A stretch of 64,000 nt of DNA from contig NW_027362772.1 of the NCBI RefSeq assembly GCF_046119375.1, positions 310,558,001 to 310,622,000 of the forward strand, written 5' to 3'. The translations under genes were made by a program, and so were the position numbers. Under the pieces are notes generated by a model. It was given only the letters and a program-made list of their open reading frames with translations, ran no database searches and had not been told where the DNA came from. Numbering within the stretch: position 1 is the stretch's first letter; each line of letters begins with the position of its first letter. This DNA is from Phyllobates terribilis (Eukaryota). Of the stretch, positions 15,805-57,600 are shown piece by piece.

Positions 15805-15805
15805 G

Positions 15806-21878: not shown

Positions 21879-21887
21879 GTACACTGG

Positions 21888-21978
21888 ACGCTCCCCCCGC
21901 GCACTGATGACGCCGCACGCTCCCCCCGCGCACTGATGACGCCGCACGCTCCCCCCGCGCACTGATGATGCCGCACGC
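21888..21978. repeat. 29-bp unit x3 (acgctccccccgcgcactgatgacgccgc) just after the exon donor
   Basis: Copies start at 21888, 21917 and 21946. Confidence 0.85.
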
Positions 21979-22194
21979 AGTCACTGAATAGATAAACATT
22001 ACCTCCAGAAGATGCCGGATTATCGGGCAGTCTGGACCCCCGATTATCGGGCAGTTGGGGCCCCCGATGGTCCTGACTGTCTGATGGTTGGGCACTGATC
22101 GTCCACACTATCTGGTAATCGGGCAGCTTGCAGGCCCCACCGGTTCCAGATTGGGGGAATGTTTATGAGGTCGCACCCTGCTTGTGTCTTTCAG

Positions 22195-26960: not shown

Positions 26961-27759
26961 CTGCAAAGGAGCATGTATATTATACATTGTATCGAATGGG
27001 GATCCCAGGACCAGATTACATCCGGGAGAACTTTCCGACCCTAGGACCGTTCTTGTTTCCTTCCCCTGCCGTCTAATGGCTTCAACTGATACAATACACT
27101 CCTGAAATACTCTGTGCTGCAGGTGTTGTCCATCATCTGCACCCAGGTAGTCTCTGCCCTTATAGTCTGATTCCACTGACTGGCAGTGTCCGTATGGCAG
27201 CACGGTGATGGACGCCTGGAGTTGATGTTTTATAATGTCAGCACTAACAAGACTAATAAGTTACAGTGTCACATCTGGTCCGCAGAGCAGCGGCGGCCAT
27301 ATGTATCAGCGAGGGAGGGGTTAACACGGAGCAATGTGTTTCCTTTATTCTCGGGATCTCCTCGGCATCTGTTTTCGGATCATATCCTGACGCCCGGCGA
27401 TCCAATGTGGCAGATAAACCCCCCGAGCCGCGGTGAAGTGTTACCATCCGTCCGCTTATCATCGTGGTGGTCGCCCCCATCTGCTGGTGAGAAATACGAG
27501 CTGATGAAAGCGCTCGACCTGCACAGGAAGACGAAGCGGAGGGGAGACGTCTGTGTGTAACCCGGCTCCAACAACTCGCCCTCAAAAACCACAGTGCCGG
27601 GGGGCGAGGGCCAGGAAATGGGGCCAAGTCGGCAAAGTGTCAGCCGCAGCTCGTGGGAAGAGAGGATTTACAGCCGCTGTACGAGTGTCTGTAACAGGAA
27701 TCGCGCGGTTACTGCTCAGACGATAAAATCGGGAAATAATGTCCAGAAGTTATAAAAAA

Positions 27760-30700
27760 GACAAGGCGGTAAAGACGAGAGTATAAGACACGACGCGATA
27801 AAGACGAGAGTATAAGACACGACGCGGTATAGAGGAGAGTATAAGACACGACTCGGTATAGAGGAGAGTATAAGACACGAAGCGATAAAGACGAGAGTAT
27901 AAGACACGACGCGGCATAGAGGAGAGTATAAGACACGACGCGGTATAGAGGAGAGTATAAGACACGACGCGGCATAGAGGAGAGTATAAGACACGACGCG
28001 GTATAGAGGAGAGTATAAGACACGACTCGGTATAGAGGAGAGTATAAGACACGACGCGATAAAGACGAGAGTATAAGACACGACGCGGCATAGAGGAGAG
28101 TATAAGACACGACGCGGTATAGAGGAGAGTATAAGACACGACGCGGCATAGAGGAGAGTATAAGACACGACGCTGTATAGAGGAGAGTATAAGACACGAC
28201 GCGGTATAGAGGAGAGTATAAGACACGACGCTGTATAGAGGAGAGTATAAGACACGACGCTGTATAGAGGAGAGTATAAGACACGACGCGGTATAGAGGA
28301 GAGTATAAGACACGACGCGGTATAGAGGAGAGTATAAGACACGACGCGGTATAGAGGAGAGTATGAGACACGACGCGGTATAGAGGAGAGTATGAGACAC
28401 GACGCGGTATAGAGGAGCGTATAAGACACGACGCGGTATAGAGGAGAGTATAAGACACGACGCGGTATAGAGGAGAGTATAAGACACGACGCTGTATAGA
28501 GGAGAGTATAAGACACGACGCTGTATAGAGGAGAGTATAAGACACGACGCTGTATAGAGGAGAGTATGAGACACGACGCGGTATAGAGGAGAGTATGAGA
28601 CACGACGCGGTATAGAGGAGCGTATAAGACACGACGCGGTATAGAGGAGAGTATAAGACACGACGCGGTATAGAGGAGAGTATAAGACACGACGCGGTAT
28701 AGAGGAGAGTATAAGACACGACGCGGTATAGAGGAGAGTATAATACACGACGCGGTATAGAGGAGAGTATAAGACACGACGCGGTATAGAGGAGAGTATA
28801 ATACACGACGCGGTATAGAGGAGAGTATAAGACACGACGCGGTATAGAGGAGAGTATAAGACACGACGCGGTATAGAGGAGAGTATAAGACACGACGCGG
28901 TATAGAGGAGAGTATAAGACACGACGCTGTATAGAGGAGAGTATAAGACACGACGCGGTATAGAGGAGAGTATAAGACACGACGCGGTATAGAGGAGAGT
29001 ATAAGACACGACGCGGTATAGAGGAGAGTATAAGACACGACGCGGTATAGAGGAGAGTATAAGACACGACGCGGTATAGAGGAGAGTATAAGACACGACG
29101 CGGTATAGAGGAGAGTATAAGACACGACGCGGTATAGAGGAGAGTATAAGACACGACGCGGTATAGAGGAGCGTATAAGACACGACGCGGTATAGAGGAG
29201 CGTATAAGACACGACGCGGTATAGAGGAGCGTATAAGACACGACGCGGTATAGAGGAGAGTATAAGACACGACGCGGTATAGAGGAGAGTATAAGACACG
29301 ACGCGGTATAGAGGAGCGTATAAGACACGACGCGGTATAGAGGAGCGTATAAGACACGACGCGGTATAGAGGAGCGTATAAGACACGACGCGGTATAGAG
29401 GAGCGTATAAGACACGACGCGGTATAGAGGAGCGTATAAGACACGACGCGGTATAAACGAGAGTATAACACACGACGTGGTATAGACGAGAGTATAACAC
29501 GACACGGTATAGAGGAGAGTATAAGACACGATGCGGTATAAACGAGAGTATAACACACCACCCGGTATAGACGAGAGTATAACACGACACGGTATAGAGG
29601 AGAGTATAAGACATGACGCGGTATAGACGAGAGTATAACACACCACCCGGTATAGACGAGAGTTTAACACAAGACGCGGTATAAATGAGAGTATAAGACA
29701 CGACGCGGTATAGACCAGAGTATAATACACGACGCGGTATAGAGGAGAGTATAAGACACGACGCGGTATAGAGGAGAGTATAAGACACGACGCGGTATAG
29801 AGGAGAGTATAAGACACGACGCGGTATAGAGGAGAGTATAAGACACGACGCGGTATAGAGGAGAGTATAAGACACGACGCGGTATAGAGGAGAGTATAAG
29901 ACACGACGCTGTATAGAGGAGAGTATAAGACACGACGCGGTATAGAGGAGCGTATAAGACACGACGCGGTATAGAGGAGAGTATAAGACACGACGCTGTA
30001 TAGAGGAGAGTATAAGACACGACGCGGTATAGAGGAGCGTATAAGACACGACGCGGTATAGAGGAGAGTATAAGACACGACGCTGTATAGAGGAGAGTAT
30101 AAGACACGACGCGGTATAGACGAGAGTATAAGACACGACGCGGTATAGACGAGAGTATAAGACACGACGCTGTATAGAGGAGAGTATAAGACACGACGCT
30201 GTATAGAGGAGAGTATAAGACACGACGCTGTATAGAGGAGAGTATAAGACACGACGCGGTATAGAGGAGCGTATAAGACACGACGCGGTATAGAGGAGCG
30301 TATAAGACACGACGCGGTATAGAGGAGCGTATAAGACGACGCGGTATAGAGGAGCGTATAAGACACGACGCGGTATAGAGGAGCGTATAAGACACGACGC
30401 GGTATAGAGGAGCGTATAAGACACGACGCGGTATAGAGGAGCGTATAAGACACGACGCGGTATAGAGGAGAGTATAAGACACGACGCGGTATAGAGGAGC
30501 GTATAAGACACGACGCGGTATAAACGAGAGTATAATACACGACGCGGTATAGACGAGAGTATGACACGACACGGTATAGAGGAGAGTATAAGACACGATG
30601 CGGTATAAACGAGAGTATAATACACGACGCGGTATAGACGAGAGTATAACACGACACGGTATAGAGGAGAGTATAAGACACGACACGGTATAGAGGAGAG

Positions 30701-31725
30701 TATAAGACACGACACGGTATAGAGGAGAGTATAAGACACGACGCGGTATAGACGAGAGTATAAGACACGACGCGGTATAGACGAGAGTAAAACACGACAC
30801 GGTATAGAGGAGAGTATAAGACACGACGCTGTATAGAGGAGAGTATAAGACACGACGCGGTATAGAGGAGAGTATGAGACACGACGCGGTATAGAGGAGA
30901 GTATAAGACACGACGCGGTATAGAGGAGAGTATGAGACACGACGCAGTATAGAGGAGAGTATGAGACACGACGCGGTATAGAGGAGAGTATGAGACACGA
31001 CGCGGTATAGAGGAGAGTATAAGACACGACGCGGTATAGAGGAGAGTATAAGACACGACGCGGTATAGAGGAGAGTATAAGACACGACGCGGTATAGAGG
31101 AGAGTATAACACACGACGCGGTATAGACGAGAGTATAAGACACGACGCGGTATAGAGGAGAGTATGAGACACGACGCGGTATAGAGGAGCGTATAAGACA
31201 CGACGCGGTATAGAGGAGAGTATAAGACACGACGCGGTATAGAGGAGAGTATAAGACACGACGCGGTATAGAGGAGAGTATAAGACACGACGCGGTATAG
31301 ACCAGCGTATAAGACACGACGCGGTATAGAGGAGAGTATAAGACACGACGCGGTATAGAAGAGCATATAAGACACGACTCGGTATAGAGGAGAGTATAAT
31401 ACATGACGCAGTATAGACGAGAGTATAATACATGACGCGGTATAGACGAGAGTATAATACGTGACGCCGTATAGACGAGAGTATAATACATGACGCGGTA
31501 TAGACGAGAGTATAATACACGACGCGGTATAGAAGAGAGTATAACACAACACAACGCGGTATAGACGAGAGTATAAAACATGACGCGGTATAGACGAGAG
31601 TATAATACATGACGCGGTATAGACGAGAGTATAATACATGACGCGGTATAGAGGAGAGTATAATACATGACGCGGTATAGAGGAGAGTATAATACATGAC
31701 GCAGTATAGACGAGAGTATAAAACA
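27760..31725. repeat. 29-bp CpG-rich minisatellite, ~135 copies
   Basis: Unit gacacgacgcggtatagaggagagtataa; it is the source of the 600-1336 aa minus-strand pseudo-ORFs. Confidence 0.97.
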
Positions 31726-31729
31726 CAGC

Positions 31730-32649
31730 TGTGACGATACAGATTATAATCTTAATCAGCCAGACAATTAGATTTGCTAAGCCAAGAGAAATACACTACT
31801 GTGTTCATGGTGACTTGTAAATGTATGTGTATTTCTGTGGTTGTTGAAGAAGAACACACTATTATGTGTATAAAACTGAATGTTGACTTGTCCTCCTTTG
31901 GAATCAATGATGCTTGTTAATATGCTAATGACATGTGAATAAGCAACTAGCTGGCTTAGTATAATAAGAGCCCCTACTATACCCACTATGTAAATTGATT
32001 AGCTAATACAATGAGACCTGAACCCTGTGAGTAATGCCCTCCCTAACCCCTTGACCTGTGGATGTGCTTCTGTAGCTGTGAGACTTGAAACAGAAATTGG
32101 AAAGAGACTTTACACGGAGAGTCAAGGTTCAGACTGTCTGAGACCATCAGCTTGGTAGCATGGCTTTAACCTAAGAGATACAGATTTGGATTCTACATGA
32201 TTCCGGCCTAAGGGTACGGCCCTGACTGGAAAGATACAGATCTGCTCCATTGACCATCAGAGAGCCCATGGATACATTTGGGAAGATCAGGTTGGAACGA
32301 TGACGTCACCTGGCCCCATTGATGTGTTGTTTGGGGTTGCCTGGAGGGACCCATGGAGACATTCGGAGAAGCCAGATGGGGACCAGACGGTCATCTGGCC
32401 CCATGAAAACTCTCATAGGGGCCAGGGTGGGAACTTCGGATCTCCTGGCCTTGTACTTCGATGGACTGTCAGCTTCCTAAGCTTGCCGCTACCTTCTCTC
32501 TATGGGGGCTCGCCCGAAGTGGTGGGCCACTGGTTGAGGTAGTTGGCCCTGGAAGTCTTGTGGTTCAATAAAGTATTGCCACGCTGTTTTACCCTTACCC
32601 TGTGTTGTCTGAGTAGCGTTACACCCACGGAAGACCCCGGGTCTTCACA
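31730..32649 (+). mobile_element. Probable solo LTR, 920 bp
   Basis: Termini tgtga...tcaca; flanks acagc / acagg (5-bp TSD with one mismatch); aataaa ~80 bp before the 3' end; internal tgacgtca (CRE). Confidence 0.55.
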
Positions 32650-34310: not shown

Positions 34311-37300
34311 TAACAGTCTAAAGGTGCCCGTACATCTTAGATGGCAGTCAGCTGAATGCTTCTTCTGATTAATGGATCCCTCCTGATCCCTCTATACATA
34401 TGAACCCTCAGATGTCTTCTCTATGGGGAGAGAAAGCCACTGATAACACTTATCAGGCAGGGTCTTTTCTGACTGGAGAGCAAAAAGATCAAGCCTTTGA
34501 ATTCAAAAGGCCCAATCTTTTCTCCACCAACATCATTTTGTCCTGGGATGGCCGGGAGGCCCGCATACATACCCGCATACATATTCGATGGCCAGTGACA
34601 GGAAGCGTGTGCATATGTGGCACCCTGCTGTTCACAGGTACAACAGGTCCCAAAAGGGTGCATGAATGGACTTCTCCACAAGAGGCCCTCATTACATGCA
34701 GACACCTCCACCCTTCCACCTCATACCACCAGAGGGAGCCCGTTAGGGATATATATATATATATGGAGGGTGGAGCCAGGCAGTCAGATAGTTTAGTGAG
34801 AGAGTTCAGAGAGTGTGCTGCCACTGAGAGCAGTGAAGACGCAGCACGTCTGCTGCTGAATTGAGGGCCCCGAGTGTGGCCAGAGGCAGTAAGGAGAGGA
34901 GAGAGGAGTTGAGGGGGCAAAGGAGCATCATAGGCTCACCCCAAGACACAAACCGGACACCGGGTCCGCGCCTACAGGGTCCTCTATACCCAGTAGGGAC
35001 TACCGGCTTACCAGGAGGCTTCCAGACCCCTGGTCATCCTGAAGCTACCAGCAATAACCGGACTAGGAACCACGAAGGCCCCGGCGTCCAGGGATAGTGG
35101 TTGACAAAGAAAGGTCCTACTACCAAGCGGTCAGGTGAGAGAGCAACACAACACAGAAGCTAGGCCAAGTTCCAGGCTGGCTAGAAGCTTAGAGAGAGGG
35201 AGACACAGATCAGGAGGCCTTATACCCGCTCACTGGGGAGAAGTCCTGAAGTGCACCTGACGCGCCCCCTGGGCCGTGGGGATACCCGGAGCCGGGCCTT
35301 GTAGATGCTGGGGGTTGTAGTCACCGTGGCGGTGACCCGGTCCGTGACCCAGGGCGGTCAAACCAAGGGGTAGTCTGGGTATGTGTTAATGTCAGACTAC
35401 GCCACCTGTGGATTGCGGTTATTGGTAACCGCCGCTGCGGAGCAGTCCACTGAAGCCGATGGTGTGTGCAGCAAGGTGATGTGACTCCCCACAGGAAGAG
35501 TGTAGCTTCAGGGCAGCGTGTATGGATGATGGTGGTTATGGCGCAGGTAGTCAGTAATGACACGGAGTCAGATAGTGCAGTCCCAGGTCTTTTACTCACA
35601 ATTGTAGCAGTTCCAGAGACAGGGCCAGTGTAGGAGCCCACGGCGTCCTGTGTTCACGCAGTGAGGGGCTCGGTCGACCCTCAGGTATCTCTGGAGCATT
35701 TAGGAGGACCCCCTTCTGTGTGTCCTCTCTGGCCTCTCTCCTTGTACCTCACACCTAGCGGCACCTCTGTCCAGTGTGCTCGGGCCTTGGCGGGTGACGT
35801 GTGTTCCATCGCCTGGCCCTATGTGGCTACCTTTCTAGTGGCTGGTGTGGACGGCTTGCTGTACTTGAAGTGCTGCAGCCTCCGGTTCCCAGTTGAGCCC
35901 TGTAGTCTCTGCTGGCTGGGCGACCCGGTTCCCCTCTTCTGGCCTGACCCCCCTACCTCCTGGCAGCGGCGGGCGTACGGGTGGCTTGCTGCATGGCTCA
36001 TACCCCTGTGGTCCCTTCCCTCCTAGTCCTGGAGCCGTCCTGCTCCCACTCCTCTCTTCTCCTTCCAGGCTCAGGCCTCCAGGCTAGGCCCGCCTCTGGA
36101 GTAGAGCTCATGCAGAGCCTCTGCTCCTGTCACTTTCACTCTCCACCACTGACTGGAACTGAACTCTGACCTAAGATGGTTCCTTCCTTTTATACCTTCT
36201 ACTCCAGTGCTCCCAGGATCTACGTCCTCCACCCACCCACTACATAGTTCCCCCTCTCTAGGTGGTTCCTCCCCACTCCAGCCAGGGATCAGGGACACTT
36301 GTGCTCTACTGTAGGAGCATTATCGTCCTGTCCCCCAGAAATGTGGTGTAGTGGATGTAGTGTTAGGGTCCTGAGCCATACTCCTTCCTTACCTGAGAGT
36401 GAGGTACCACATCTCTGGGTGAGATGCAATACCTCTGTGGCGACTGAACCCTCAGGGGCGTCACACGCCCCCCCCCCCGGTAAAACACAGCACGTCCGCG
36501 GGCTGGAACAGAGCAAAAGACAAATTTTAAAGACATGCAAAATTTTAGGACATGTCCGCATACAAGATCACAAACAACATCTCTTCCCTTTATTGGAGGC
36601 ATACTTCTTTAACGTTACTGGTTACATTTCATTTACCAAAACACTATAAACACTTTCTTCACATGTTATAAAACATTTCATCATATTTTGGCATTTGTCA
36701 TGTAGCACCCTGAGGATTCGGCTGCTACAGGGGTATTGCACCTCAACCAGAGGTGTGATATTCCACTCCCGGGTAAGGATGGAGTGTGAAACTGAGCTCA
36801 GAAAGCTGCATGCACTACACACATCCCATTTCCGAGGAACAGACCAACGGTACTCCCACTTAGAAATGTGCAGGTACGACCGAGTCTGTTCCTGGCTGGA
36901 GTGGGAGGGGGGTGGTACATCCCAGTAGTGTAGGGGCAGATAGGGGGAGCAGCCTGGGTAAAGTTAGGAGCTCATTGGGTGCTGGTCACCTGAGCTCACA
37001 CATAGAGGGAGTATATAAGGTGGGCACCATCTAAGATCAGGGTCAGTCTGCCACAGTCGGTCAGTCTGTGAGAAGTCAGAGGAGGAGAGCAGAGCAGCCC
37101 CAGAGCAAGAGTGAGAGAGAGGAGAAAGGAAGAAAGACCCAGAGGGGGTGAAAGAAAAGGACTCTGAGAACCCAAAGTCCATCACCGGGTGAAGAGTTGG
37201 CAACTGGGTACCGGATCCCAAACTGGTGGGGGCTAAAGCACACCCTAGCCAGAGACCGGAGGCCGTGGGCAGGGTCTGCCACGGCCACGCACCACATCCA

Positions 37301-37885
37301 CCCTGAAGGCAAACCACGTGTAGGGTCAGGGAACCCAAGGCCAAGGGTCTCCCAACAGAAGGCCCGAGGGAGCTGGACCTAGGTGGATCCCTGGTGGGGA
37401 CGGCCAGAAGACAGGACAGGAAGGAGGGCTCAGGGTCACGCTCCGGACTTGCTTGGGGGTTGGCTGAATCCAGGACCTGGTGGACGCAGCACGGCTCGGG
37501 TGGTCACTTGAAGCTGGAGTGACCGGAACATCAGCAGTAAGTAAATACCTTAAACTGCACAACCCGACTCTGTCTTTAATTACCATCTATGCTGCACCAC
37601 CACAACCCCCATCCTCTGCACCTGACCCCCTGAGGCTATACCCCACCCGTTGGGGGTTATACTATCAAAAGCTGCACCAACACCATCAGCCTCAGCGGAC
37701 CCTGCTGCAGCGGCGGCCGTAGTGACCGCAATACAACGGGTGGCGTAGTCGACATAAAGAACTTTTGTAACATCTGTAGGACTGCCACATACTCTGAGCT
37801 TGACACCCTGGGCACGGACCGGGTCACAGCCACTCGGAGACTACAACCCCCATCTGATCCGGCTCCGGGTATTCCCCTAAAGAAT

Positions 37886-39337
37886 ATGGCCCAGGGGGCG
37901 CGTCAACTTTGGCGTAGTCGGCAGGATTACGTGCCCGCAACACCCGGGTACTGCGTGCCTGAAGAAAAGAACAAGTTTACCTCAAAAAGAAGTCTCCTGC
38001 CGGTTCCGGAGGGTCCCCGCCATCGGACTCCATCACAGGTCGATTCCCGCCGGTTGTCCGCCATTAACAGCTTTTTCCCGCCATCTACAGAGTTTCCCGC
38101 CACTGGGAGACGATTCCCGCCATTTCCAAAGGTTTCCCGCCTTGTCAGAGCGGACGCCATTATGGGCGTGCCAGAGGATGGCAAGAGGCCGCCTCCCATC
38201 GTGGGCCAGGACCGAAAATGGCGCCAAAAGTGGAAACCGCCCCCACCAACAGAGACTGTGATGCTAGAGGTGTCTGTCAGCGTGAAAGAACTGCCCCTGG
38301 AGCTGACAATCACCAAGTGGCCCCGGGACCGCCCTCGAAGTGGGAGGACTGAGAAGGAGAGAGCAAAGATGGGTGTCGCCTGGAGCAGTCTGGAGAGAGC
38401 GCACCCGGAGACAAGACGTCTGGAGGAGAGTCCAGAAAGAGCTTACCCGGAGATGGAAGAAGAGCAGAGCAGCACCGGCCCGCTGGCCAGGAGCCTGCTG
38501 GAAACAACAGAAGGAGAGCAGAGCAGCACCGACCCGTTGGTCAGGAGCCTGCTAGAAGCAACGACCCCACTAGGCTTAGTGGAGGTCTTGGCACAGCTCC
38601 CCCGAGATCGGGAGTGTGCACAGACCGCTCTGGAGGGCCTCGCACGGAGGATGGCCCGGGTGCAGCGAGAGACGTTGGCGGAGTGGAGCCGTGAGATGGC
38701 CCAGCAGACCGAGACCCGTCAGCGGAGCACGCCACCCAAGACGAGGAGACAGACCGCCTCTGAGGATGGCGCAGGAGGACTGAAGGCCGGAGACGGCGCC
38801 GAGAAGGGAGCCGAACGAATGGAGGCAGGTAAAGGGGACGTCTCTACCCCAAACTGGGAAACCGCGCACCTGCCCCAGCTCCCCGTCGCAGAGCCCGAAG
38901 TACCCCCTGCCGTGCCCGTAACCGCAACGTCACCGCCACAGACTAGGCCTCAACCGGAAGCCGCAGCCGCGACCCCTGTGACGTCACACGCCTCGACCCC
39001 GAGCGTGACCAAGCAGGAAGTACCACCAGCCTGGTCGCAAGGCCTAGTACCCCCGGGCGCCGCAATACTAACAGCGCCCCCTACCTCCGCGGAGCCACCG
39101 GCCTGGTCGCAGGGCCAAGTAGCCCAGGGCGCCGCCGTCCTTACGGTGCCCTTCACTTTCCAGGTGCCCCAGGCCTGGCCGCAAGGCCTGGGCAACCCGG
39201 GTGCCGCCACCACCACCGCGCCCATAAAACCTAAAGTGCCGCATCTGGGAGAAGATCTGTTCGCCCAGCCTACGTGCCCGGACGGGTCTGAAGTTAAAGG
39301 TAACCACAAAGAAAGAGCAGGAGGACGCCGTCGTTAA
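37886..39337 (+). CDS. Uncharacterised ORF of the inner LTR element (up to 483 aa; true start uncertain)
   Basis: Uninterrupted ORF spanning most of the internal region, with a helical segment (TALEGLARRMARVQRETLAEWSREMAQQ) and in-frame 18-aa x2 and 24-aa x3 repeats. No recognisable capsid or zinc-knuckle motif. The first ATG lies inside the LTR. Confidence 0.5.
   Translation: MAQGARQLWRSRQDYVPATPGYCVPEEKNKFTSKRSLLPVPEGPRHRTPSQVDSRRLSAINSFFPPSTEFPATGRRFPPFPKVSRLVRADAIMGVPEDGKRPPPIVGQDRKWRQKWKPPPPTETVMLEVSVSVKELPLELTITKWPRDRPRSGRTEKERAKMGVAWSSLERAHPETRRLEESPERAYPEMEEEQSSTGPLARSLLETTEGEQSSTDPLVRSLLEATTPLGLVEVLAQLPRDRECAQTALEGLARRMARVQRETLAEWSREMAQQTETRQRSTPPKTRRQTASEDGAGGLKAGDGAEKGAERMEAGKGDVSTPNWETAHLPQLPVAEPEVPPAVPVTATSPPQTRPQPEAAAATPVTSHASTPSVTKQEVPPAWSQGLVPPGAAILTAPPTSAEPPAWSQGQVAQGAAVLTVPFTFQVPQAWPQGLGNPGAATTTAPIKPKVPHLGEDLFAQPTCPDGSEVKGNHKERAGGRRR
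37910..37928 (+). promoter_or_regulatory. Primer-binding site complementary to the 3' end of tRNA-Ser
   Basis: tggcgtagtcggcaggatt is the reverse complement of ...AATCCTGCCGACTACG-CCA, the 3' end of vertebrate tRNA-Ser(AGA/TGA) as recalled. An identical PBS lies on the minus strand at 42238-42256. Confidence 0.85.
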
Positions 39338-41457
39338 GTACAGCAGAGTACAAGCTGTATATAGTTGCCCGTCGGGGCACAGTGAACTGTTGATAATATA
39401 GTCCCCGTTGGGACCAGCAAGTGTGAACTGTTTACCCGTATTTCCCTCAATCCCACTGACCGAGGACTGAGAGCGGTCATCCCTATTCCCATTACCTGGC
39501 CGAGGACTGAGAGCGGCCCCACTACCCTTGTATATAGTTGCGCTTCCTAAAGCGCCCCCTACCGGTTTTATAGGAAAGCCATGAGTTCCAAAGACTGTCG
39601 CACTTTACCCGGTCACAGTGACCGGAGGAGGAGCCAGAGGCGACGAGAATGTTATTAATATGAAAAGTTTTATGATGATGCTGCTAATATATGTTTTATA
39701 TGTTTGTATTATGTTGTTTATGAAAAAAAATTGTATGTTTTGGTGTTTTTATCTCTTGCAGCCCGAGGACGTGCTGTGATTTACCAGGGGGGAATGTAGC
39801 ACCCTGAGGATTCGGCTGCTACAGGGGTATTGCACCTCAACCAGAGGTGTGATATTCCACTCCCGGGTAAGGATGGAGTGTGAAACTGAGCTCAGAAAGC
39901 TGCATGCACTACACACATCCCATTTCCGAGGAACAGACCAACGGTACTCCCACTTAGAAATGTGCAGGTACGACCGAGTCTGTTCCTGGCTGGAGTGGGA
40001 GGGGGGTGGTACATCCCAGTAGTGTAGGGGCAGATAGGGGGAGCAGCCTGGGTAAAGTTAGGAGCTCATTGGGTGCTGGTCACCTGAGCTCACACATAGA
40101 GGGAGTATATAAGGTGGGCACCATCTAAGATCAGGGTCAGTCTGCCACAGTCGGTCAGTCTGTGAGAAGTCAGAGGAGGAGAGCAGAGCAGCCCCAGAGC
40201 AAGAGTGAGAGAGAGGAGAAAGGAAGAAAGACCCAGAGGGGGTGAAAGAAAAGGACTCTGAGAACCCAAAGTCCATCACCGGGTGAAGAGTTGGCAACTG
40301 GGTACCGGATCCCAAACTGGTGGGGGCTAAAGCACACCCTAGCCAGAGACCGGAGGCCGTGGGCAGGATCTGCCACGGCCACCCACCACATCCACCCTGA
40401 AGGCAAACCACGTGTAGGGTCAGGGAACCCAAGGCCAAGGGTCTCCCAACAGAAGGCCCGAGGGAGCTGGACCTAGGTGGATCCCTGGTGGGGACGGCCA
40501 GAAGACAGGACAGGAAGGAGGGCTCAGGGTCACGCTCCGGACTTGCTTGGGGGTTGGCTGAATCCAGGACCTGGTGGACGCAGCACGGCTCGGGTGGTCA
40601 CTTGAAGCTGGAGTGACCGGAACATCAGCAGTAAGTAAATACCCTAAACTGCACAACCCGACTCTGTCTTTAATTACCATCTATGCTGCACCACCACAAC
40701 CCCCATCCTCTGCACCTGACCCCCTGAGGCTATACCCCACCCGTTGGGGGTTATACTATCAAAAGCTGCACCAACACCATCAGCCTCAGCGGACCCTGCT
40801 GCAGCGGCGGCCGTAGTGACCGCAATACAACGGGTGGCGTAGTCGACATAAAGAACTTTTGTAACATCTGTAGAACTGCCACATACTCTGAGCTTGACAC
40901 CCTGGGCACGGACCGGGTCACAGCCACTCGGAGACTACAACCCCCATCTGATCCGGCTCCGGGTATTCCCCTAAAGAATATGGCCCAGGGGGCGCGTCAG
41001 TCATATCAAAAACAATTTTCACATAAACTGTTCAAGTAAACTTTTTGATCAACTGGTCACAGTGATGTCTGCAACCAGGTGTCCATTTTTTAATAAGGTG
41101 CAACTTTGCAAACACAAACATGAGGGACCCGTCCCAAACCCTCAACGGAGGCCCTGGGGTGGCTGCAGGGCTTAGACGATCCAGATGCTGGACCTCGTCT
41201 TCGGCCACCTCCAGCGGGTTTTTATTCTGAGGTTACGCGTTGTAGTTCTTATAAAACCAGTAGGGGGCACATTAAGAAGTGCAACTATTTACAAGAAGTG
41301 GCTGCTCCCAGTCCTCAGCCGGTCAGTCTTTGGACCCATTACGAGTAACTAGGTAAACGGGTTAAATGTTCGCACAAACTTTAACTTGCAGTGTCCATTC
41401 TGCTGCACCCCGATGGGTAACTTATTTACATTTCAAGTTCAGTTCCTCTTACTATAC

Positions 41458-42075
41458 TCAGTAAGGGTGCTCCCTCCGGGGAGGCTCTGGTCCAACGCAG
41501 GCTGACCCAGCTGGGTCATCAGCGCTGTAGAACGTTGTCTCCACCCTGTAGACGTTCAGGGCATACCAGCCCCTCTCACCTCGGTGCCTGGTGTAGATGA
41601 CATGATCACTAGGGTACAGGTCTGGGGTGTGAGCGCCTGGGATAAGCGGTTCCGGCAGGGGGACCAGGGACTGTGCAGCGCCAGCTGCGTCCGGGACAGG
41701 GAAATCACTCCTACCTGCTCCCGCGACCGCTTCAGCTCGGCCCATCACCTCCCGATCCATGAGCAGCTCCGCCGGGGCTTGGGCGCCGCCGATCACTTGC
41801 AGCGCCGCCCCCGGTATGTATGGTATTGATAACGGCATTACCGTGGCAGCGGCCGCGCCTGGACTTTCCTCCATGCTGGGCGTCTTCTTCCCCCCTAGTG
41901 AACCGTGGCCTACCTTCCTTCTCCTTCCTTCCGTAGGCCGCAGTTCCGCAGGCGAGGGTCTCCGTCGAGGACCTGGCGTCGCACACGTCTGACGTGAGCG
42001 TTCGCTGTGGCTCCTTCCAGGACCTGGCGCTGCGTCAGTGAGTGGGGCGGGGCTTTGGACTTCGCGCGTTTTCAT
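41458..42075 (-). CDS. Uncharacterised ORF of the middle LTR element (205 aa) ending in a cold-shock-domain-like half motif
   Basis: ATG ~160 nt after the PBS; C-terminal DLYPSDHVIYTRHRGERGWYALNVYR. Confidence 0.45.
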   Translation of the reverse strand: MKTREVQSPAPLTDAAPGPGRSHSERSRQTCATPGPRRRPSPAELRPTEGRRRKVGHGSLGGKKTPSMEESPGAAAATVMPLSIPYIPGAALQVIGGAQAPAELLMDREVMGRAEAVAGAGRSDFPVPDAAGAAQSLVPLPEPLIPGAHTPDLYPSDHVIYTRHRGERGWYALNVYRVETTFYSADDPAGSACVGPEPPRREHPY

Positions 42076-43879
42076 CGATCACGCCCCTCTTCTTCCCGCG
42101 TGGCGATTTGAAAATGGCGGACAATGGCGGGAAAACGGCGGCAATGGCGGGAAAACAGCGGCAATGGCGGGATAACTTCACCACTGTATGCGACACAGTT
42201 CTTAAAGGCGCACAGTACCCAGTGGCAACGGGCACGAAATCCTGCCGACTACGCCAAAGTTGATGCGCCCCCTGGGCCGTGGGAATACCCGGAGCCGGGC
42301 CTTGTAGATGCTAGGGGTTGTAGTCACCGTGGCGGCGACCCGGTCCGTGACCCAGGGCGGTCAAACCAGGATAGTAGTCTATGTCTATAGATGTTAATGT
42401 CCGACTACGCCACCTGTGGAATGCGGTTATTGGGAACCGCCGCTGCGGAGCAGTCCACTGAAGCCGATGGTGTGTGCAGCAAGGTGATGTGACTCCCCAC
42501 AGGAAGAGTGTAGCCTCAGGGCAGCGTGTATGGATGATGGTGGTTATGGTACAGGTAGTCAGTAATGACACGGAGTCAGATAGTGCAGTCCCAGGTCTTT
42601 TACTCACGATTGTAGCAGTTCCAGAGACAGGGCCAGTGTAGGAGCCCACGGCGTCCTGTGTTCACGCAGTGAGGGGCTCGGTCGACCCTCAGGTATCTCT
42701 GGAGTATTTAGCAGGACCCCCTTCTGTGTGTCCTCTCTGGCCTCTCTCCTTGTACCTCACACCTAGCGGCACCTCTGTCCAGTGTCCTCGGGCCTTGGCG
42801 GGTGACGTGTGTTCCATCGCCTGGCCCTATGTGGCTACCTTTCTAGTGGCTGGTGTGGACGGCTTGCTGTACTTGAAGTGCTGCAGCCTCCGGTTCCCAG
42901 TTGAGCCCTGTAGTCTCTGCTGGCTGGGGGACCCGGTTCCCCTCTTCTGGCCTGGCCCCCCGTACCTCCTTGCAGCGGCGGGCGTACGGGTGGCTTGCTG
43001 CACGGCCCGTACCCCTGGGGTCCCTTCCCTCCTAGTCCTGGAGCCGTCCTGATCCCACTCCTCTCTTCTCTTCCAGGCTCAGGCCTCCTGGCTAGGCCCG
43101 CCTCTGGAGCAGAGCTCATGCAGAGCCTCTGCTCCTGTCACTTTCACTCTCCACCACTGACTGGAAGGAACTGAACTCTGACCTAAGATGGTTCCTTCCT
43201 TTTATACCTCCTACTCCAGTGCTCCCAGGATCTACATCCTCCACCCACCCACTACATAGTTCCCCCTCTCTAGGTGGTTCCTCCCCACTCCAGCCAGGGA
43301 TCAGGGACACTTGTGCTCTAGTGTAGGAGCATTATCGCCCTGTCCCCCGGAAATGTGGTGTAGTGGATGCAGTGTTAGGGTCCTGAGCCATACTCCTTCC
43401 TTACTTGAGAGCAAGGTACCACATCTCTTGATGAGATGCAATAACTCTGTGGCGACCGAACCCTCAGGGGCGCCACACACCCCTCCTAGCAAGTACCCCG
43501 GACCATACCTGCCGTTACACCAGTAAAGGTACTGAAGCAAATCCCCTGTGTGCGTGTCCGTCATTCTCCCTGACCTGGCCATCTCTCACCAGCATCCCTT
43601 CCATCTACACTGCCCCGGGGGCTCGCTCCGCCTGTGGGGAGCAGAAACATCCCAGCTGCCATCCCATCACCCCCGGAGGTCTGCAGCAGCGCCGGTAACC
43701 ATTACAGGAAACCACAGGTGGCGTCACGAGACAAACTGTACACTAAAAACCCCTTTTTCAAGAGAGACCCCAGAGGACGGGCCCGGTAGCCGACTGCCGT
43801 GACATCCTAAGCAAGGTAAAAGGCTCGGGTACCGAGTTCCCTATATCCCCCTGGGTGACACACATATAGGGGCTTAAAT

Positions 43880-48347: not shown

Positions 48348-48569
48348 AATGGGGCACTCAGCACCCCGACATATTCTGAGTCCTCATTCACTGTGACTGA
48401 CGTACGAGTTCTGTGAATCTCACAGATACAACATGAACCCGTTATAGTCTCTGGCACTGTTCACATGTCCGAAAACATTGTCCGATTTTGATTGGAGTCA
48501 CAGATCTAAATCACACAAACAAATCTGTGGGTCGGTGAAAATCACAGACCGCACATGGATGGCACCAGC

Positions 48570-51500
48570 GCAATCAGAGTATAATCAGTGCGCGGCCCGG
48601 GTGCAGTCAGTGCATGGTCAATCAGTGCGCGGCCCGGGTGCAGTCAGTGCATGGTCAGTCAGTGCGCGGCCCAGGTGCAGTCAGTGCATGGTCAGTCAGT
48701 GCGCGGCCCGGGTGCAGTCAGTGCATGGTCAATCAGTGCATGGCCCAGGTACAATCAGTGCACGGCATGGGTGCAGTCAGTGCATGGTCAATCAGTGCGC
48801 GGCCCGGGTGCAGTCAGTGCATGGTCAGTCAGTGCGCGGCCCGGGTGCAGTCAGTGCAATCAGAGTATAATCAGTGCGCGGCCCAGGTGCAGTCAGCGCA
48901 CTCAGAGTATAATCAGTGCGCGGCCCGGGTGCAGTCAGCGCAATCAGAGTATAATCAGTGCGCGGCCCGGGTGCAGTCAGCGCAATCAGAGTATAATCAG
49001 TGCGCGGCCCGGGTGCAGTCAGTGCATGGTCAATCAGTGCGCGGCCCAGGTGCAGTCAGTGCATGGTCAATCAGTGCGCGGCCCAGGTGCAGTCAGTGCA
49101 TGGTCAATCAGTGCGCGGCCCAGGTGCAGTCAGTGCATGGTCAATCAGTGCATGGCCCAGGTGCAGTCAGTGCATGGTCAATCAGTGCGCGGCCCGGGTG
49201 CAGTCAGTGCATGGTCAATCAGTGCATGGCCCAGGTGCAGTCAGTGCATGGTCGATCAGTGCGCGGCCCAGGTGCAGTCAGTGCATGGTCAATCAGTGCA
49301 TGGCCCAGGTACAATCAGTGCATGGTCAGTCAGTGCGCGGCCCAGGTGCAGTCAGTGCATGGTCAATCAGTGCATGGCCCAGGTACAATCAGTGCATGGT
49401 CAATCAGTGCGCGGCCCGGGTGCAGTCAGTGCATGGTCAGTCAGTGCGCGGCCCAGGTGCAGTCAGTGCATGGTCAATCAGTGCATGGCCCAGGTACAAT
49501 CAGTGCATGGCATGGGTGCAGTCAGTGCATGGTCAATCAGTGCGCGGCCCAGGTGCAGTCAGTGCATGGTCAATCAGTGCGCGGCCCGGGTGCAGTCAGT
49601 GCATGGTCAATCAGTGCGCGGCCCAGGTGCAGTCAGTGCATGGTCAATCAGTGCGCGGCCCAGGTGCAGTCAGTGCATGGTCAATCAGTGCATGGCCCAG
49701 GTACAATCAGTGCACGGCATGGGTGCAGTCAGTGCATGGTCAATCAGTGCGCGGCCCAGGTGCAGTCAGTGCATGGTCAATCAGTGCGCGGCCCAGGTGC
49801 AGTCAGTGCATGGTCAGTCAGTGCGCGGCCCGGGTGCAGTCAGTGCAATCAGAGTATAATCAGTGCGCGGCCCAGGTGCAGTCAGCGCAATCAGAGTATA
49901 ATCAGTGCGCGGCCTGGGTGCAGTCAGCGCAATCAGAGTATAACCAGTGCGCGGCCCGGGTGCAGTCAGCGCAATCAGAATATAATCAGTGCGCGGCCCG
50001 GGTGCAGTCAGTGCATGGTCAATCAGTGCGCGGCCCAGGTGCAGTCAGTGCATGGTCAATCAGTGCGCGGCCCAGGTGCAGTCAGTGCATGGTCAATCAG
50101 TGCGCGGCCCAGGTGCAGTCAGTGCATGGTCAATCAGTGCATGGCCCAGGTGCAGTCAGTGCATGGTCAATCAGTGCGCGGCCCGGGTGCAGTCGGTGCA
50201 TGGTCAATCAGTGCATGGCCCAGGTGCAGTCAGTGCATGGTCAATCAGTGCATGGCCCAGGTGCAGTCAGTGCATGGTCAATCAGTGCGCAGCCCGGGTG
50301 CAGTCAGTGCATGGTCAATCAGTGCGCAGCCCAGGTGCAGTCAGTGCATGGTCAATCAGTGCGCGGCCCGGGTGCAGTCAGTGCATGGTCAATCAGTGCG
50401 CGGCCCAGGTGCAGTCAGTGCATGGTCAATCAGTGCATGGCCCAGGTGCAGTCAGTGCATGGTCAATCAGTGCACGGCCCAGGTGCAGTCAGTGCATGGT
50501 CAGTCAGTGCGCGGCCCAGGTGCAGTCAGTGCTTGGTCAATCAGTGCGCGGCCCAGGTGCAGTCAGTGCATGGTCAATCAGTGCATGGCCCAGGTACAAT
50601 CAGTGCACGGCATGGGTGCAGTCAGTGCATGGTCAATCAGTGCGCGGCCCGGGTGCACTCAGTGCATGGTCAATCAGTGCGCGGCCCAGGTGCAGTCAGT
50701 GCATGGTCAATCAGTGCGCGGCCCAGGTGCAGTCAGTGCATGGTCAATCAGTGCGCGGCCCAGGTGCAGTCAGTGCATGGTCAGTCAGTGCGCGGCTCGG
50801 GTGCAGTCAGTGCATGGTCAATCAGTGCGCGGCCCGGGTGCAGTCAGCGCAATCAGAGTATAATCAGTGCGCGGCCCAGGTGCAGTCAGCGCAATCAGAG
50901 TATAATCAGTGCGCGGCCCGGGTGCAGTCAGCGCAATCAGAGTATAATCAGTGCGCGGCCCGGGTGCAGTCAGCGCAATCAGAGTATAATCAGTGCGCGG
51001 CCCGGGTGCAGTCAGCGCAATCAGAGTATAATCAGTGCGCGGCCCGGGTGCAGTCAGCGCAATCAGAGTATAATCAGTGCGCGGCCCGGGTGCAGTCAGT
51101 GCATGGTCAATCAGTGCGCGGCCCGGGTGCAGTCAGTGCATGGTCAATCAGTGTGCGGCCCAGGTGCAGTCAGTGCACAGTCAATCAGTGCGCGGCCCGG
51201 GTGCAGTCATTGAACGGTCAATCAGTGCGCGGCCGGGTGCAGTCAGTGCACGGTCAATCAGTGCGCGGCCCGGGTGCAGTCAGCGCAATCAGAGTATAAT
51301 CAGTGCGCGGCCTGGGTGCAGTCAGTGCATGGTCAATCAGTGCGCGGCCCGGGTGCAGTCAGTGCATGGTCAATCAGTGCGCGGCCCGGGTGCAGTCAGT
51401 GCACAGTCAATCAGTGCGCGGCCCGGGTGCAGTCATTGAACGGTCAATCAGTGCGCGGCCGGGTGCAGTCAGTGCACGGTCAATCAGTGCGCGGCCCGGG

Positions 51501-54120
51501 TGCAGTCAGTGCACGGTCAATCAGTGCAGTCAGTGCATGGTCAATCAGTGCACGGCCCGGGTGCAATTAGTGCACGGTCCGGATGCATTCAGTGCATGGT
51601 CAATCAGTGCACGGCCCGGGTGCAATTAGTGCACGGTCAATCAGTGCAGTCAGTGCATGGTCAATCAGTGCGCGGCCCGGGAGCAATTAGTGCACGGCCC
51701 GGATGCATTCAGTGCATGGTCAATCAGTGCACGGCCCGGGTGCAATTAGTGCACGGCCCGGGTGCAATTAGTGCGCGGCCCGGATGCATTCAGTGCATGG
51801 TCAATCAGTGCGCGGCCCGGGAGCAATTAGTGCGCGGCCCGGGTGCAGTCAGTGCATGGTCAATCAGTGCACGGCCCGGGTGCAATTAGTGCGCGTCCCG
51901 GATGCATTCAGTGCATGGTCAATCAGTGAGTGCGCGGCCCGGGAGCAATTAGTGCACGGCCCGGATACATTCAGTGCATGGTCAATCAGTGCATGGCCCG
52001 GGTGCAATCAGTGCATGGTCAATCAGTGCATGGCCCGGGTACAATCAGTGCGAGGCCCGGGTACAATCAGTGCATGGTCAATCAGTGCATGGCCCGGGTG
52101 CAGTCAGTGCATGGTCAATCAGTGCATGGCCCGGGTACAATCAGTGCACGGCACGGGTGCAGTCAGTGCGAGGCCTGGGTGCAGTCAGTGCATGGTCAAT
52201 CAGTGCGCGGCCCGGGTGCAGTCAGTGCATGGTCAATCAGTGCGCGGCCGGGGAGCAATTAGTGCACGGCCCGGATGCATTCAGTGCATGGTCAATCAGG
52301 GCATGGCCCGGGTGCAATCAGTGCATGGTCAATCAGTGCATGGCCCGGGTACAATCAGTGCGAGGCCCGGGTACAATCAGTGCATGGTCAATCAGTGCAC
52401 GGCATGGGTGCAGTCCGTACGAGGCCCGGGTGCAGTCAGCGCATGGTCAATCAGTGAGCGGCCCGGGTAGAATCAGTGTGCGGCCCAGGTCTAGTCAGTG
52501 CTTGGTCAATCAGTCCGCGGCCCAGGTGCAGTCAGTGCATGGTCAATCAGTGCATGGCCCAGGTACAATCAGTGCACGGCATGGGTGCAGTCAGTGCATG
52601 GTCAACCCGGGTGCAGTCAGTGCATGGTCAATCAGTGCGCGGCCTGGGTGCACTCAGTGCATGGTCAATCAGTGCGCGGCCCAGGTGCAGTCAGTGCATG
52701 GTCAATCAGTGCGCGGCCCAGGTGCAGTCAGTGCATGGTCAATCAGTGCGCGGCCCAGGTGCAGTCAGTGCATGGTCAGTCAGTGCGCGGCTCGGGTGCA
52801 GTCAGTGCATGGTCAATCAGTGCGCGGCCCGGGTGCAGTCAGCGCAATCAGAGTATAATCAGTGCGCGGCCCAGGTGCAGTCAGTGCAATCAGAGTATAA
52901 TCAGTGCGCGGCCCGGGTGCAGTCAGCGCAATCAGAGTATAATCAGTGCGCGGCCCGGGTGCAGTCAGCGCAATCAGAGTATAATCAGTGCGCGGCCTGG
53001 GTGCAGTCAGTGCATGGTCAATCAGTGTGCGGCCCAGGTGCAGTCAGTGCACAGTCAATCAGTGCGCGGCCCGGGTGCAGTCATTGAACGGTCAATCAGT
53101 GCGCGGCCGGGTGCAGTCAGTGCACGGTCAATCAGTGCACGGCCCGGGTGCAGTCAGTGCACGGTCAATCAGTGCAGTCAGTGCATGGTCAATCAGTGCA
53201 CGGCCCGGGTGCAATTAGTGCACGGTCCGGATGCATTCAGTGCATGGTCAATCAGTGCACGGCCCGGGTGCAGTCAGTGCATGGTCAATCAGTGCGCGGC
53301 CCGGGAGCAATTAGTGCACGGCCCGGATGCATTCAGTGCATGGTCAATCAGTGCACGGCCCGGGTGCAATTAGTGCACGGCCCGGGTGCAATTAGTGCGC
53401 GGCCCGGATGCATTCAGTGCATGGTCAATCAGTGCGCGGCCCGGGAGCAATTAGTGCGCGGCCCGGGTGCAGTCAGTGCATGGTCAATCAGTGCACGGCC
53501 CGGGTGCAATTAGTGCGCGTCCCGGATGCATTCAGTGCATGGTCAATCAGTGAGTGCGCGGCCCGGGAGCAATTAGTGCACGGCCCGGATGCATTCAGTG
53601 CATGGTCAATCAGTGCATGGCCCGGGTACAATCAGTGCGAGGCCCGGGTACATTCAGTGCATGGCCCGGGTACATTCAGTGCACGGCCCGGGTGCAGTCA
53701 GTGCATGGTCAATCAGTGCATGGCCCGGGTACAATCAGTGCACGGCACAGGTGCAGTCAGTGCGAGGCCTGGGTGCAGTCAGTGCATGGTCAATCAGTGC
53801 GCGGCCCGGGTGCAGTCAGTGCATGGTCAATCAGTGCGCGGCCGGGGAGCAATTAGTGCACGGCCCGGATGCATTCAGTGCATGGTCAATCAGGGCATGG
53901 CCCGGGTGCAATCAGTGCATGGTCAATCAGTGCATGGCCCGGGTACAATCAGTGCGAGGCCCGGGTACAATCAGTGCATGGTCAATCAGTGCACGGCATG
54001 GGTGCAGTCCGTACGAGGCCCGGGTGCAGTCAGCGCATGGTCAATCAGTGAGCGGCCCGGGTAGAATCAGTGTGCGGCCCAGGTCTAGTCAGTGCGCGGC
54101 CCGGATGCAGTCAGTGAGCA
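48570..54120. repeat. Complex satellite with 37-bp main unit and 42-bp variant unit
   Basis: gtgcagtcagtgcatggtcaatcagtgcgcggcccag (37 bp) and tgcagtcagcgcaatcagagtataatcagtgcgcggcccggg (42 bp), built from cagtgc sub-repeats. Confidence 0.97.
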
Positions 54121-54664
54121 GTCTGTGATTAACTGTGTAATGTCTGGGAGAAGGTGCATAATTCACTGACACCAACCAAACTCTGATGATGCCGGTACGT
54201 GAATAAAAAACTCAGGCCTTAGGGTATGAGCACACGGCGCCTTCACGACACTCGCCAAGTTTTTCCTCGATGAAGCCACTCCAGGAAAAGCCGGCAGTCT
54301 TCTTCCTGTAGCTGCTTTGCCATCGTCTTTGCGGCTATTCAGCCGCCGCCGACCGTTTCTATTGCTTACACTATAACTAGCGAGCGGCCGGGGAATGATT
54401 GCGCGCCTTGTTCCATCGGCTTCATGACTTCTGAACCCCAAAGAGGTTAAAAGAAGCAGCAGCGATCGGCTCGTGCGCACTAATCATACTTACATTGTGG
54501 CCTTTTCTCTGGTGCTTTTTCAGACGAGATCCAGGCGGGATTCACATAAGAACGATGTTGTGGGCACAAAACCTTATACCGAGCTAAGCTTGTGAGAGGC
54601 CGAGGACCTCGGAAAGAAAGGAACACACTACACAAGACGGCCCCGAAATACAGATGTTCAGTGG

Positions 54665-57600
54665 AGAAAACGTGACCAACACCTGGAGACATCGGGGGGA
54701 CGTGACCGACACCTGGAGACATCGGGGGGACGTGACCGACACCTGGAGACATTGGGGGGAACGTGACCGACACCTGGAGACATCGGGGGGACGTGACCGA
54801 CACCTGGAGATATAAAGGGGGATGTGAACGACACCTGGAGACATCGGGGGGACGTGACCGACACCTGGAGACATCGGGGGGACGTGACCGACACCTGGAG
54901 ACATTGGGGGGATGTGACCGACACCTGGAGACATCGGGGGGACGTGACCGACACCTGGAGACATCGGGGGGACGTGACCGACACCTGGAGACATCGGGGG
55001 GGACGTGACCGACACCTGGAGACATCGGGGGGGACGTGACCGACACCTGGAGACATCGGGGGGGACGTGACCGACACCTGGAGACATCGGGGGGGACGTG
55101 ACCGACACCTGGAGACATGGGGGGGGGGGGACGTGACCGACACCTGGAGACATGGGGGGGGACATGACCGACACCTGGAGACATCGGGGGGACGTGACCG
55201 ACACCTGGAGATATCGGGGGGATGTGAATGACACCTGGAGACATCGGGGGGCGTGACCGACACCTGGAGACATCGGGGGGGATGTGACCGACACCTGGAG
55301 ACATTGGGGGGACGTGACCGACACTTGGAGACATGGGGGGGACGTGACTGACACCTGGAGACATCGGTGAGACGTGACTGACACCTGGAGACATCGGGGG
55401 GACGTGACCGACACCTGGAGACATCGGGGGGACGTGACCGACACCTGGAGACATCGGGGGGGACGTGACCGACACCTGGAGACATCGGGGGGACGTGACC
55501 GACACCTGGAGACATGGGGGGGGGACGTGACCACCACCTGGAGACATTGGGGGGGACATGACCGACACCTGGAGACATCGGGGGGACGTGACCGACACCT
55601 GGAGATATCGGGGGGATGTGAACGACACCTGGAGACATCGGGGGGACGTGACCGACACCTGGAGACATGGGGGGGGATGTGACCGACACCTGGAGACATT
55701 GGGGGGACGTGACCGACACCTGGAGACATGGGGGGGACGTGACTGACACCTGGAGACATCGGTGAGACGTGACTGACACCTGGAGACATGGGGGGGGGAC
55801 ATGACCGACACCTGGAGACATGGGGGGGGACATGACCGACACCTGGAGACATCGGGGGGACGTGACCGACACCTGGAGACATCGAGGGGACATGAGCGAC
55901 ACCTGGAGACATCGGGGGGACATGACCGTCACCTGGAGACATCGGGGGGACATGACCAACACCTGGAGATATTGCAGGGAAGCTGGACGTGACCGACATC
56001 TGGAAATATTGGAAGGGTAGTGACCGAAACTTGGGAGATATTGGAGGGGTTGGGAGGTGGACACCCGAAAATATTAGGAGGGAATGTAACCGACATCTGG
56101 AGACATGGGGTGGACGTCACCGACACCTGGAGACATTGGGGGGGACGTGATGGACACCTGGAGACATCGGGAAGGACGTGACCAACACCTGGAGATATTG
56201 AGAAGGATGTGACCAACACCTAGAGACATGGGGGGGGGTGGGGGACGTGACCGACACCTGGAGACATTGGGAAGGACGTGACTGACATCTGGAGACATTG
56301 GGGGGTGGGGGACTTGACCGACACCTGGAGACATTGGGAATGACGTGACCGACACCTGAGGGGTTGGGAGGTGGACGTGGACACCTAAAAATATTAGGGG
56401 GGAATGTAACCGACACCTGGAGACATCGGGGAGGGGGAACCTGACGGACACCTAGAGACATTGGCAGGGACGTGACGGACACCTGGAGACATCGGGAAGG
56501 ACGTGACCGACACTTGGAGACATCGGGAAGGACGTGACGGACACCTGGATATATCGAGGGGACGTGATCGACATGACTGAAACCTGGAGACAACGGGGTG
56601 AACATGACCGACACCTGGAGACATCGGGGGGGGGGGGACGTGAGCGACACCTGGAGACATGGGGGGGGACGTGACGGACACCTGGAGACATCGGGGGGAC
56701 GTGACCAACACCAAGAGACATCGGGAAGGACATATCCGACATCTGGAGACATTGAGGGGTGGGGAATGTGACCGACACCTGGAGACATCAGGAAGGACGT
56801 GACCGACATCTGGAGACATCGAGGGTTGGGGGACGTGACCGACACCTGGAGACATCGGGAAGGACGTGACTGACATCTAGAGACATCGAGGGGTGGGGGA
56901 CGTGATTGACACCTGGAGACATCGGGAAGGACGTGACCGACAACTAGAGACATCGAGGGGTGGGGGACGTGAGCGACACCTGAAGATATCGGAGGGGTTG
57001 GGAAGTGGACGTGGACACCTGAAAATATTAGGAGGGAATGTAACCGACATCTGGAGACATCGAGGGGTGGGGGATGTGACCGACACCTGGAGACATCGGG
57101 AAGGACGTGACCGACACTTGGAGACATCGGGAAGGACGTGACGGACACCTGGATATATTGAGGGGACGTGATCGACATGACTGAAACCTGGAGACAACGG
57201 GATGAACATGACCGACACCTGGAGACATCTGGGGGGGGACGTGAGCGACACCTGGAGACATGGGGGGGGGTGTGACGGACACCTGGAGACATCGGGGGGA
57301 CGTGACCAACACCAAGAGACATCGGGGGGACGTGACCAACACCAAGAGACATCGGGAAGGACATATCCGACATCTGGAGACATTGAGGGGTGGGGAATGT
57401 GACCGACACCTGGAGACATCGGGAAGGACGTGACCGACATCTAGAGACATCGAGGGGTGGGGGACGTGAGCGACACCTGAAGATATCGGAGGGGTTGGGA
57501 AGTGGACGTGGACACCTGAAAATATTAGGAGGGAATGTAACCGACATCTGGAGACATCGAGGGGTGGGGGATGTGACCGACACCTGGAGACATCGGGAAG

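Follow-up and report, generated by a model that had tools for sequence, protein, structure and literature searches.

The 64,000-nucleotide stretch of Phyllobates terribilis DNA analysed here (the window) contains an LTR element, referred to as element A, whose 205-aa ORF (P0001; minus strand, 41458–42075) was originally predicted to end in the C-terminal half of a cold-shock domain (CSD), which raises the question of whether this half motif is real and how it came to lie in a retroelement. When the predicted motif was loosened, six-frame translation of the window gave a single match, at 41619, and 100,000 shuffled versions of the ORF gave none. Moreover, a profile built from 35 related whole CSDs matched residues 147–180 of the ORF at 40.5 bits. 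A chance motif was rejected. The motif, located in frame at 41551–41622 (minus strand) by profile and translation, covers profile positions 45–78 only, i.e., the last two strands (strands 4–5) of the domain. Strands 1–3 with both RNP motifs are gone, in line with the original remark that the N-terminal RNP1 half was not visible, and the ORF does not contain a whole CSD of ~66 residues with RNP1 and RNP2. The Pfam search proposed by the original prediction yielded no match for the window ORF on its own, PF00313 included, and neither did a comparison with the PDB or a word-index protein search. Two details also needed adjustment: the motif is present, but the ORF continues for ~28 residues downstream of it, and the serine replacing a glycine does occur in the window copy, but is private to that copy among 30 translated copies. 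The half motif is thus real but a remnant, likely the non-functional remnant of a whole CSD, and the copy at the window locus has itself decayed.

Element A is part of a nest of three LTR elements, in which a solo LTR (C) was split by A, and A in turn by B. On the minus strand, A has a 5′ LTR at 42261–43477, a primer-binding site (PBS) at 42239–42256, a polypurine tract (PPT) at 36466–36478, and a 3′ LTR at 35258–36465 that is 96.6% identical to the 5′ LTR. It is flanked by the target-site duplication (TSD) CACC (35254–35257 and 43478–43481), and its internal region measures ~1.49 kb when B is subtracted. Element B lies on the plus strand, with a 5′ LTR at 36701–37905, a PBS at 37910–37927, an ORF at 38162–39337 encoding a protein of the same family as that of A-type elements, and a 3′ LTR at 39795–40999 (99.67% identical to its 5′ LTR), within the TSD GTCA (36697–36700 and 41000–41003). 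Solo LTR C (plus strand), from an autonomous Gypsy family, is left as a left part at 34613–35253 (92% identical to L132) and a right part at 43482–43862, the U5 end of which is common to the loci L131–L132 and L133. A and B have an identical PBS and both carry a G-rich PPT, and the same PBS recurs in the D-type and helper elements described below. The primer tRNA for this shared site is, we assume, of the tRNA-Ser isotype; ARAGORN called one of six candidate primer tRNA loci, as Ala, and no tRNA in the window between 34000 and 44500, while one pattern match for the primer tRNA resembled element DNA with an extended PBS. An apparent element copy at L297:1500–1585 (minus strand) has a PBS that extends unusually far, by several bases, into tRNA-like sequence.

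Elsewhere in the window, long tandem arrays (859–5117, 12000–18900, 27700–31800, and 48500–62400; e.g., a 29-bp unit in ~135 copies) generate spurious long ORFs, and an open 328-aa frame at 7808–8794 (plus strand) is presumably olfactory receptor-like.

The last 52 residues of the ORF were searched against the 10.6 Gb frog genome and returned 34,292 first-look candidates, of which the best 150 were scored, while PF00313 returned 33,380, with the best 150 scored and all above the cut-off; these candidates do not amount to copy numbers. The 30 loci returned for PF00313 comprised 21 of the element type, eight CSDE1-like loci, and one Y-box-like pseudogene. A tandem group of intronless CSDE1-like copies with retroelement sequence between them was observed at C1:734.44 Mb (L051–L056 and L130). 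From the 150 scored matches to the ORF tail, 20 were fetched, picked for long open frames, and 13 of these had an LTR pair of 0.9–1.2 kb that was 92.6–97.6% identical. When 12 ORFs were compared with Pfam, the CSD was matched over its whole length in all ten long ORFs (five of them above the cut-off) and in neither of the two half-type ORFs. Further subtypes matched the domain as well. Seventeen further regions added ten B-type copies with internal regions of 2.4–2.7 kb and open frames of 694–816 aa; their LTRs are 99.4–100% identical, which marks some subfamilies as very young. A further clade (D), distant from these, combines ~1-kb LTRs and 4-bp TSDs with the same PBS; its frames with a CSD reach 819 aa, and no pol was found in its copies. 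D-type elements were also seen in head-to-tail arrays with 3.6-kb spacing and apparently shared LTRs (C1:582.55 Mb, C3:355.46 Mb, and C4:51.30 Mb). Furthermore, three divergent CSD frames cluster at C4:791.48–791.52 Mb (L061, L135, and L136), two of which keep the RNP2 histidine; no primer site was found adjoining them, and these frames may therefore represent old copies or domesticated ones.

These elements, called passengers hereafter, have TG..CA LTRs, a PBS, a PPT, and 4-bp TSDs, i.e., the hallmarks of non-autonomous LTR retrotransposons, and a total length of ~4.5–5 kb. Their internal regions (1.5–2.7 kb) are mostly taken up by a single ORF, and Pfam searches of these regions identified the CSD as the only domain, with no pol. 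The A/B-type proteins measure 489–609 aa from a conserved ATG and consist of an N-terminus, a helix, a Pro-rich linker, a conserved acidic–aromatic motif outside the CSD (FxWD), a long predicted helix, the CSD, and an acidic tail.

Compared with this layout, element A is a three-part chimera, composed of the start of a helper gag, an in-frame deletion derivative without CSD strands 1–3, and the nested, CSD-less B. At about 41803–42238 (minus strand), its leader and first ~24 codons are those of an autonomous Gypsy gag (84–85% identical), with the crossover into the half-CSD subfamily at ~41803–41810; by alignment, the Met of the chimeric ORF that corresponds to the helper gag start lies at 41874 (minus strand). 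The in-frame internal deletion has its junction at 41597–41633 (minus strand) and, relative to the long copy L031, cost A ~650 bp encoding the end of the Pro-rich linker, the FxWD motif, the long helix, and strands 1–3. The existence of longer copies with a complete CSD and this in-frame loss bear out the prediction that the window copy derives by deletion from a CSD-bearing LTR family. In B, the position at about 39278–39286 marks an internal deletion of ~600 bp by which the helix and the whole CSD were lost.

Among 12 half-type loci that were fetched, nine have the gag start (partial in two), four have an internal region of 1.42–1.50 kb as in A, and four are half-CSD chimeras with clear TSDs of their own, indicating that the defective form transposed. 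As defective forms (the half-CSD chimeras as well as B without a CSD) have transposed, the CSD is not required in cis. It could be argued that the half domain of the window copy is functional in its own right, e.g., as a dominant-negative fusion with the Gag start, given that neither the deletion nor the gag crossover disrupts the reading frame and that the subfamily was amplified (1,384 first-look candidates, of which the best 40 were scored). In 30 copies chosen by the DNA upstream of the domain, the pooled dN/dS of 0.31 means that the half domain may be under some constraint; however, this value is driven by five shared synonymous sites, and changes private to one copy give a dN/dS of ~0.75 (11 synonymous and 24 non-synonymous). 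Moreover, the flanking codons score 0.78 and 0.87, some copies contain stops or frameshifts, and strands 1–3 with the two RNP motifs are missing, so that a functional half domain is very hard to credit.

The whole domain of the long copies was subsequently considered. An AlphaFold model from 35 diverse sequences reached a pLDDT of 92 and has five strands in a predicted OB barrel, while an earlier fold from 14 close copies reached a pLDDT of 51, with confidence limited to the long helix. Foldseek placed CspA, CspC, CspB, YB-1, and YBX2 on top for the CSD model (E ~1e-6), and did not separate Y-box from bacterial Csp proteins. By sequence profile against the PDB, Y-box proteins scored 58–60 bits, compared with 47.5 for the top-scoring bacterial protein; CSDE1 and LIN28 reached 26 and 23, respectively. 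Y-box proteins also ranked first for individual copies of the A, D, and E types. A tree (51 rows, 81 columns) that did not include any intact Y-box gene placed the element domains in one clade (98/94), suggesting a single origin of the element CSD. Its capture from a host Y-box gene is likely, a donor assignment that depends on the sequence scores because Foldseek did not discriminate and the tree was without an intact Y-box gene. A genome search for host YBX copies with the pseudogene as query returned the query itself as the sole match, and exons first taken for YBX were rejected as CSDE1-like.

With regard to the residues that typically contact nucleic acid, the RNP1 phenylalanine is retained in 32 of 35 rows and an RNP2 aromatic residue in all 35, compared with two of 35 each for the strand-1 tryptophan and the RNP2 histidine. 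Of the canonical base-stacking set of four (W, F, F, and H), two residues are therefore mostly lost, and RNA binding may be weakened or altered as a consequence; these losses count against plain Y-box-like binding.

The CSD is kept under purifying selection. Pairwise Nei-Gojobori comparison of 14 copies from four subfamilies, with values biased somewhat downward in all regions because open frames and protein similarity guided the choice of long copies, gave the CSD a dN/dS of 0.16 within subfamilies (95% interval 0.11–0.23) and 0.19 between them (0.10–0.30), in agreement with the predicted dN/dS below 1 in longer copies with a complete domain. The FxWD motif with its helix was likewise constrained (0.13–0.14), the first helix had values of 0.20–0.28, the linker had values of 0.46–0.55 (with non-overlapping bootstrap intervals), and the N-terminus was weakly constrained at ~0.7. 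The contrast from region to region stands despite the selection for open frames. The equal constraint on FxWD, an acidic–aromatic motif that resembles a docking motif, would fit a counter-defence factor that acts by small-RNA binding or by protecting element RNA against piRNA or surveillance pathways and thereby aids both passengers and helpers in trans, and the spread of CSD-defective copies regardless is what a good shared in trans would lead one to expect. A fully shared good is hard to hold at a dN/dS of 0.16 over many subfamilies, however, and Pfam searches matched no known suppressor family, which leaves counter-defence an unlikely role.

Pol is absent from the passengers but present in autonomous Gypsy elements, referred to as helpers. 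Among the other top DNA matches to the 5′ interior of A, 28 of 29 run on into a PNMA-like gag. Six such helper copies were fetched, four with pol motifs through integrase and two broken; three have LTR pairs that are 95–96% identical in elements of ~5.9–6.0 kb, i.e., the copies fetched are older and broken ones, and no young helper was identified for B or D. Their domain order by Pfam is gag (CCHC), PR, RT, RH, and IN, and no CSD was seen in the helper copies read. The PBS and the last ~340 bp of the 5′ LTR of A (the U5 side, 80–88% identical) are common to A-type passengers and gag-pol helpers, while the U3 side is not. In the C type, the gag-pol loci L131–L132 and the CSD-only L133 share ~265 bp of U5 plus the PBS at 95%. 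In a U5/PBS search for the D type, all 40 scored matches were identical, and no D-type helper was identified.

That the passengers have a U3 of their own, unlike that of the helpers, would suit a transactivator of this U3, with the CSD as its binding module for DNA or nascent RNA and the acidic–aromatic motif as its activation domain. CSDs bind both DNA and RNA strands (PMC7825780) and the extra TRP28 ORFs of Retand elements have been proposed as regulators (PMC11963269), but CSD binding is directed at single strands and of low specificity (PMC7825780), and we consider a transactivator improbable.

The original prediction had further suggested that the CSD might substitute for the zinc knuckle, as a nucleocapsid. 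Accordingly, the passenger protein would be a divergent Gag that builds or joins particles and packages RNA through a CSD in place of the knuckle. Its ORF does occupy the gag position after the PBS, with the CSD near the C-terminus, and pol-less, Gag-only LTR families are reported for Xenopus and zebrafish (PMC4585706 and PMC12067270). Nevertheless, profile–profile comparison of the passenger ORF with helper Gag gave a probability of 0.23%, i.e., no detectable homology; Pfam searches of the passenger ORFs found no capsid family, and the ORFs do not qualify as Ty3/Gypsy Gag; the ORF consists of two helices and a long Pro-rich linker; and the helper Gag retains its own CCHC knuckle. The window copy gives the impression of a CSD-terminated gag on account of recombination, its first ~24 codons being those of a helper gag. 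A Gag with a swapped knuckle was consequently rejected, and we would give it very little credence.

We have high confidence in the anatomy and history of the elements as reconstructed above. On balance, moreover, we think it probable that the passengers are a lineage devoid of pol and gag, in which a Y-box-derived CSD acts as a predicted RNA-binding accessory and which is copied in trans by Gypsy. We infer that mobilisation in trans is due to a Gypsy helper: passengers would be transcribed from their own U3, and helper Gag-Pol would prime and copy their RNA via the shared U5, PBS, and PPT. The passenger protein (~490–610 aa), a putative RNA-binding accessory, may coat and stabilise element RNA as Y-box proteins do, which would raise the fraction of passenger RNA entering helper particles. 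It would act at least partly in trans, so that CSD-defective copies could spread. In HIV, YB-1 depletion is reported to reduce the output of virions by way of viral RNA metabolism (PMC6040738). This specific function, in which coating or stabilisation of element RNA increases its share in helper particles, is put forward tentatively, with the odds slightly against it; a role as translational regulator, also raised by the original prediction, is possible.

The distribution of the family was examined in a protein scan of 1.84 billion representatives, in which related CSD proteins were found in Ranitomeya variabilis, R. imitator, Anomaloglossus baeobatrachus, and Bufo bufo, and in two Logan clusters. 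A Phyllobates terribilis protein also matched, and a word-index protein search with a long copy returned one Phyllobates protein, neither of which was counted as independent of the window. At the protein level, the family therefore appears to reach at least four frog genera. More speculatively, and with considerable doubt on our part, the passengers could belong to an old satellite class present throughout toads and poison frogs, the sole gene of which encodes a Y-box-derived RNA-binding protein that acts in trans, either by diverting both the packaging and the reverse transcription of Gypsy to passenger RNA or by shielding this RNA from silencing. If true, this would be a parasite of a parasite, with the half-CSD chimeras as its cheaters, and satellites would contribute measurably to the giant genomes of poison frogs.

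No sequencing run among those listed was annotated as RNA. Three GT..AG joints of a host gene located in the window identify four runs from two studies as spliced RNA. The contigs of these runs span a B-type element in all 30 bins, CSD included, a coverage that is weak as an indication of expression since the contigs are strandless and intronic repeats are covered as well. The host gene itself, with four exons at 18945–23000 (plus strand) and its three joints in RNA contigs of all four runs, encodes a product that we take to be sterol-desaturase-like.

If non-autonomous LTR elements retain a gene at all, it is usually gag. In the present case, an entire lineage, young subfamilies included, retains a host-type nucleic-acid-binding domain under purifying selection, and the family makes it possible to test the competition of passenger RNA for helper machinery and the repeated capture of CSDs by retroelements. 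It also sets an annotation trap, as a toad element protein bears the name 'Y-box-binding protein 2-A-like': this Bufo bufo protein (P0137) lies inside the element CSD clade, so its Y-box name is probably an annotation artefact. Families such as this one may account for some of the LTR elements classed as 'Unknown' in the genomes of poison frogs, which number 66,046 in D. tinctorius (10.1101/2023.11.06.565769). A description of CSD-only Gypsy passengers in frogs was not found in the full-text literature, a scope that lies apart from subscription journals, Repbase, and Dfam; PMC13583293 makes mention of a host gene alone.

Among known systems, YBX1 and YBX2 (PDB 1h95, 6ktc, and 7f3i) likewise have a five-strand CSD with a long loop between strands 3 and 4 and are the best sequence matches of the element CSD, yet identity is ~27%, the strand-1 tryptophan and RNP2 histidine are mostly replaced in the element, and the flanks are unrelated. 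The passengers share their plan of two LTRs, a PBS, a PPT, and a 4-bp TSD with TRIM/LARD elements such as the animal Helenus, for which the Gypsy helper was also assigned by a common PBS (PMC10886601). TRIMs are shorter than 1 kb and encode no mobilisation protein, in contrast to the ~4.5–5 kb frog passengers with their conserved ORF; since the latter exceed 1 kb and are coding, a TRIM identity was rejected. Xenopus 1a11 and xretpos (PMC4585706) and zebrafish Bik-2 (PMC12067270) are similarly non-autonomous vertebrate LTR elements with a single ORF. The ORFs of 1a11 and Bik-2 are described there as Gag-like or Gag, whereas the passenger ORF, in which no homology to Gag was detected, encodes a nucleic-acid-binding domain of host type. 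Gypsy elements of the Retand group with TRP28 likewise combine a conserved accessory nucleic-acid-binding ORF with some non-autonomous members, but that ORF belongs to a plant system, lies antisense downstream of pol, and has a domain other than the CSD (PMC11963269). Finally, sporadic CSD capture has been published for bird ERVs, which likewise are LTR retroelements with a host-derived PF00313 domain; 46 such ERVs are reported in different groups, with varied CSD positions and several captures (PMC12287698). In contrast, the frog passengers comprise one clade (98/94) with tens of thousands of first-look candidates, in which the CSD is the core of the only ORF, is under purifying selection, and belongs to an element that appears to depend on Gypsy.
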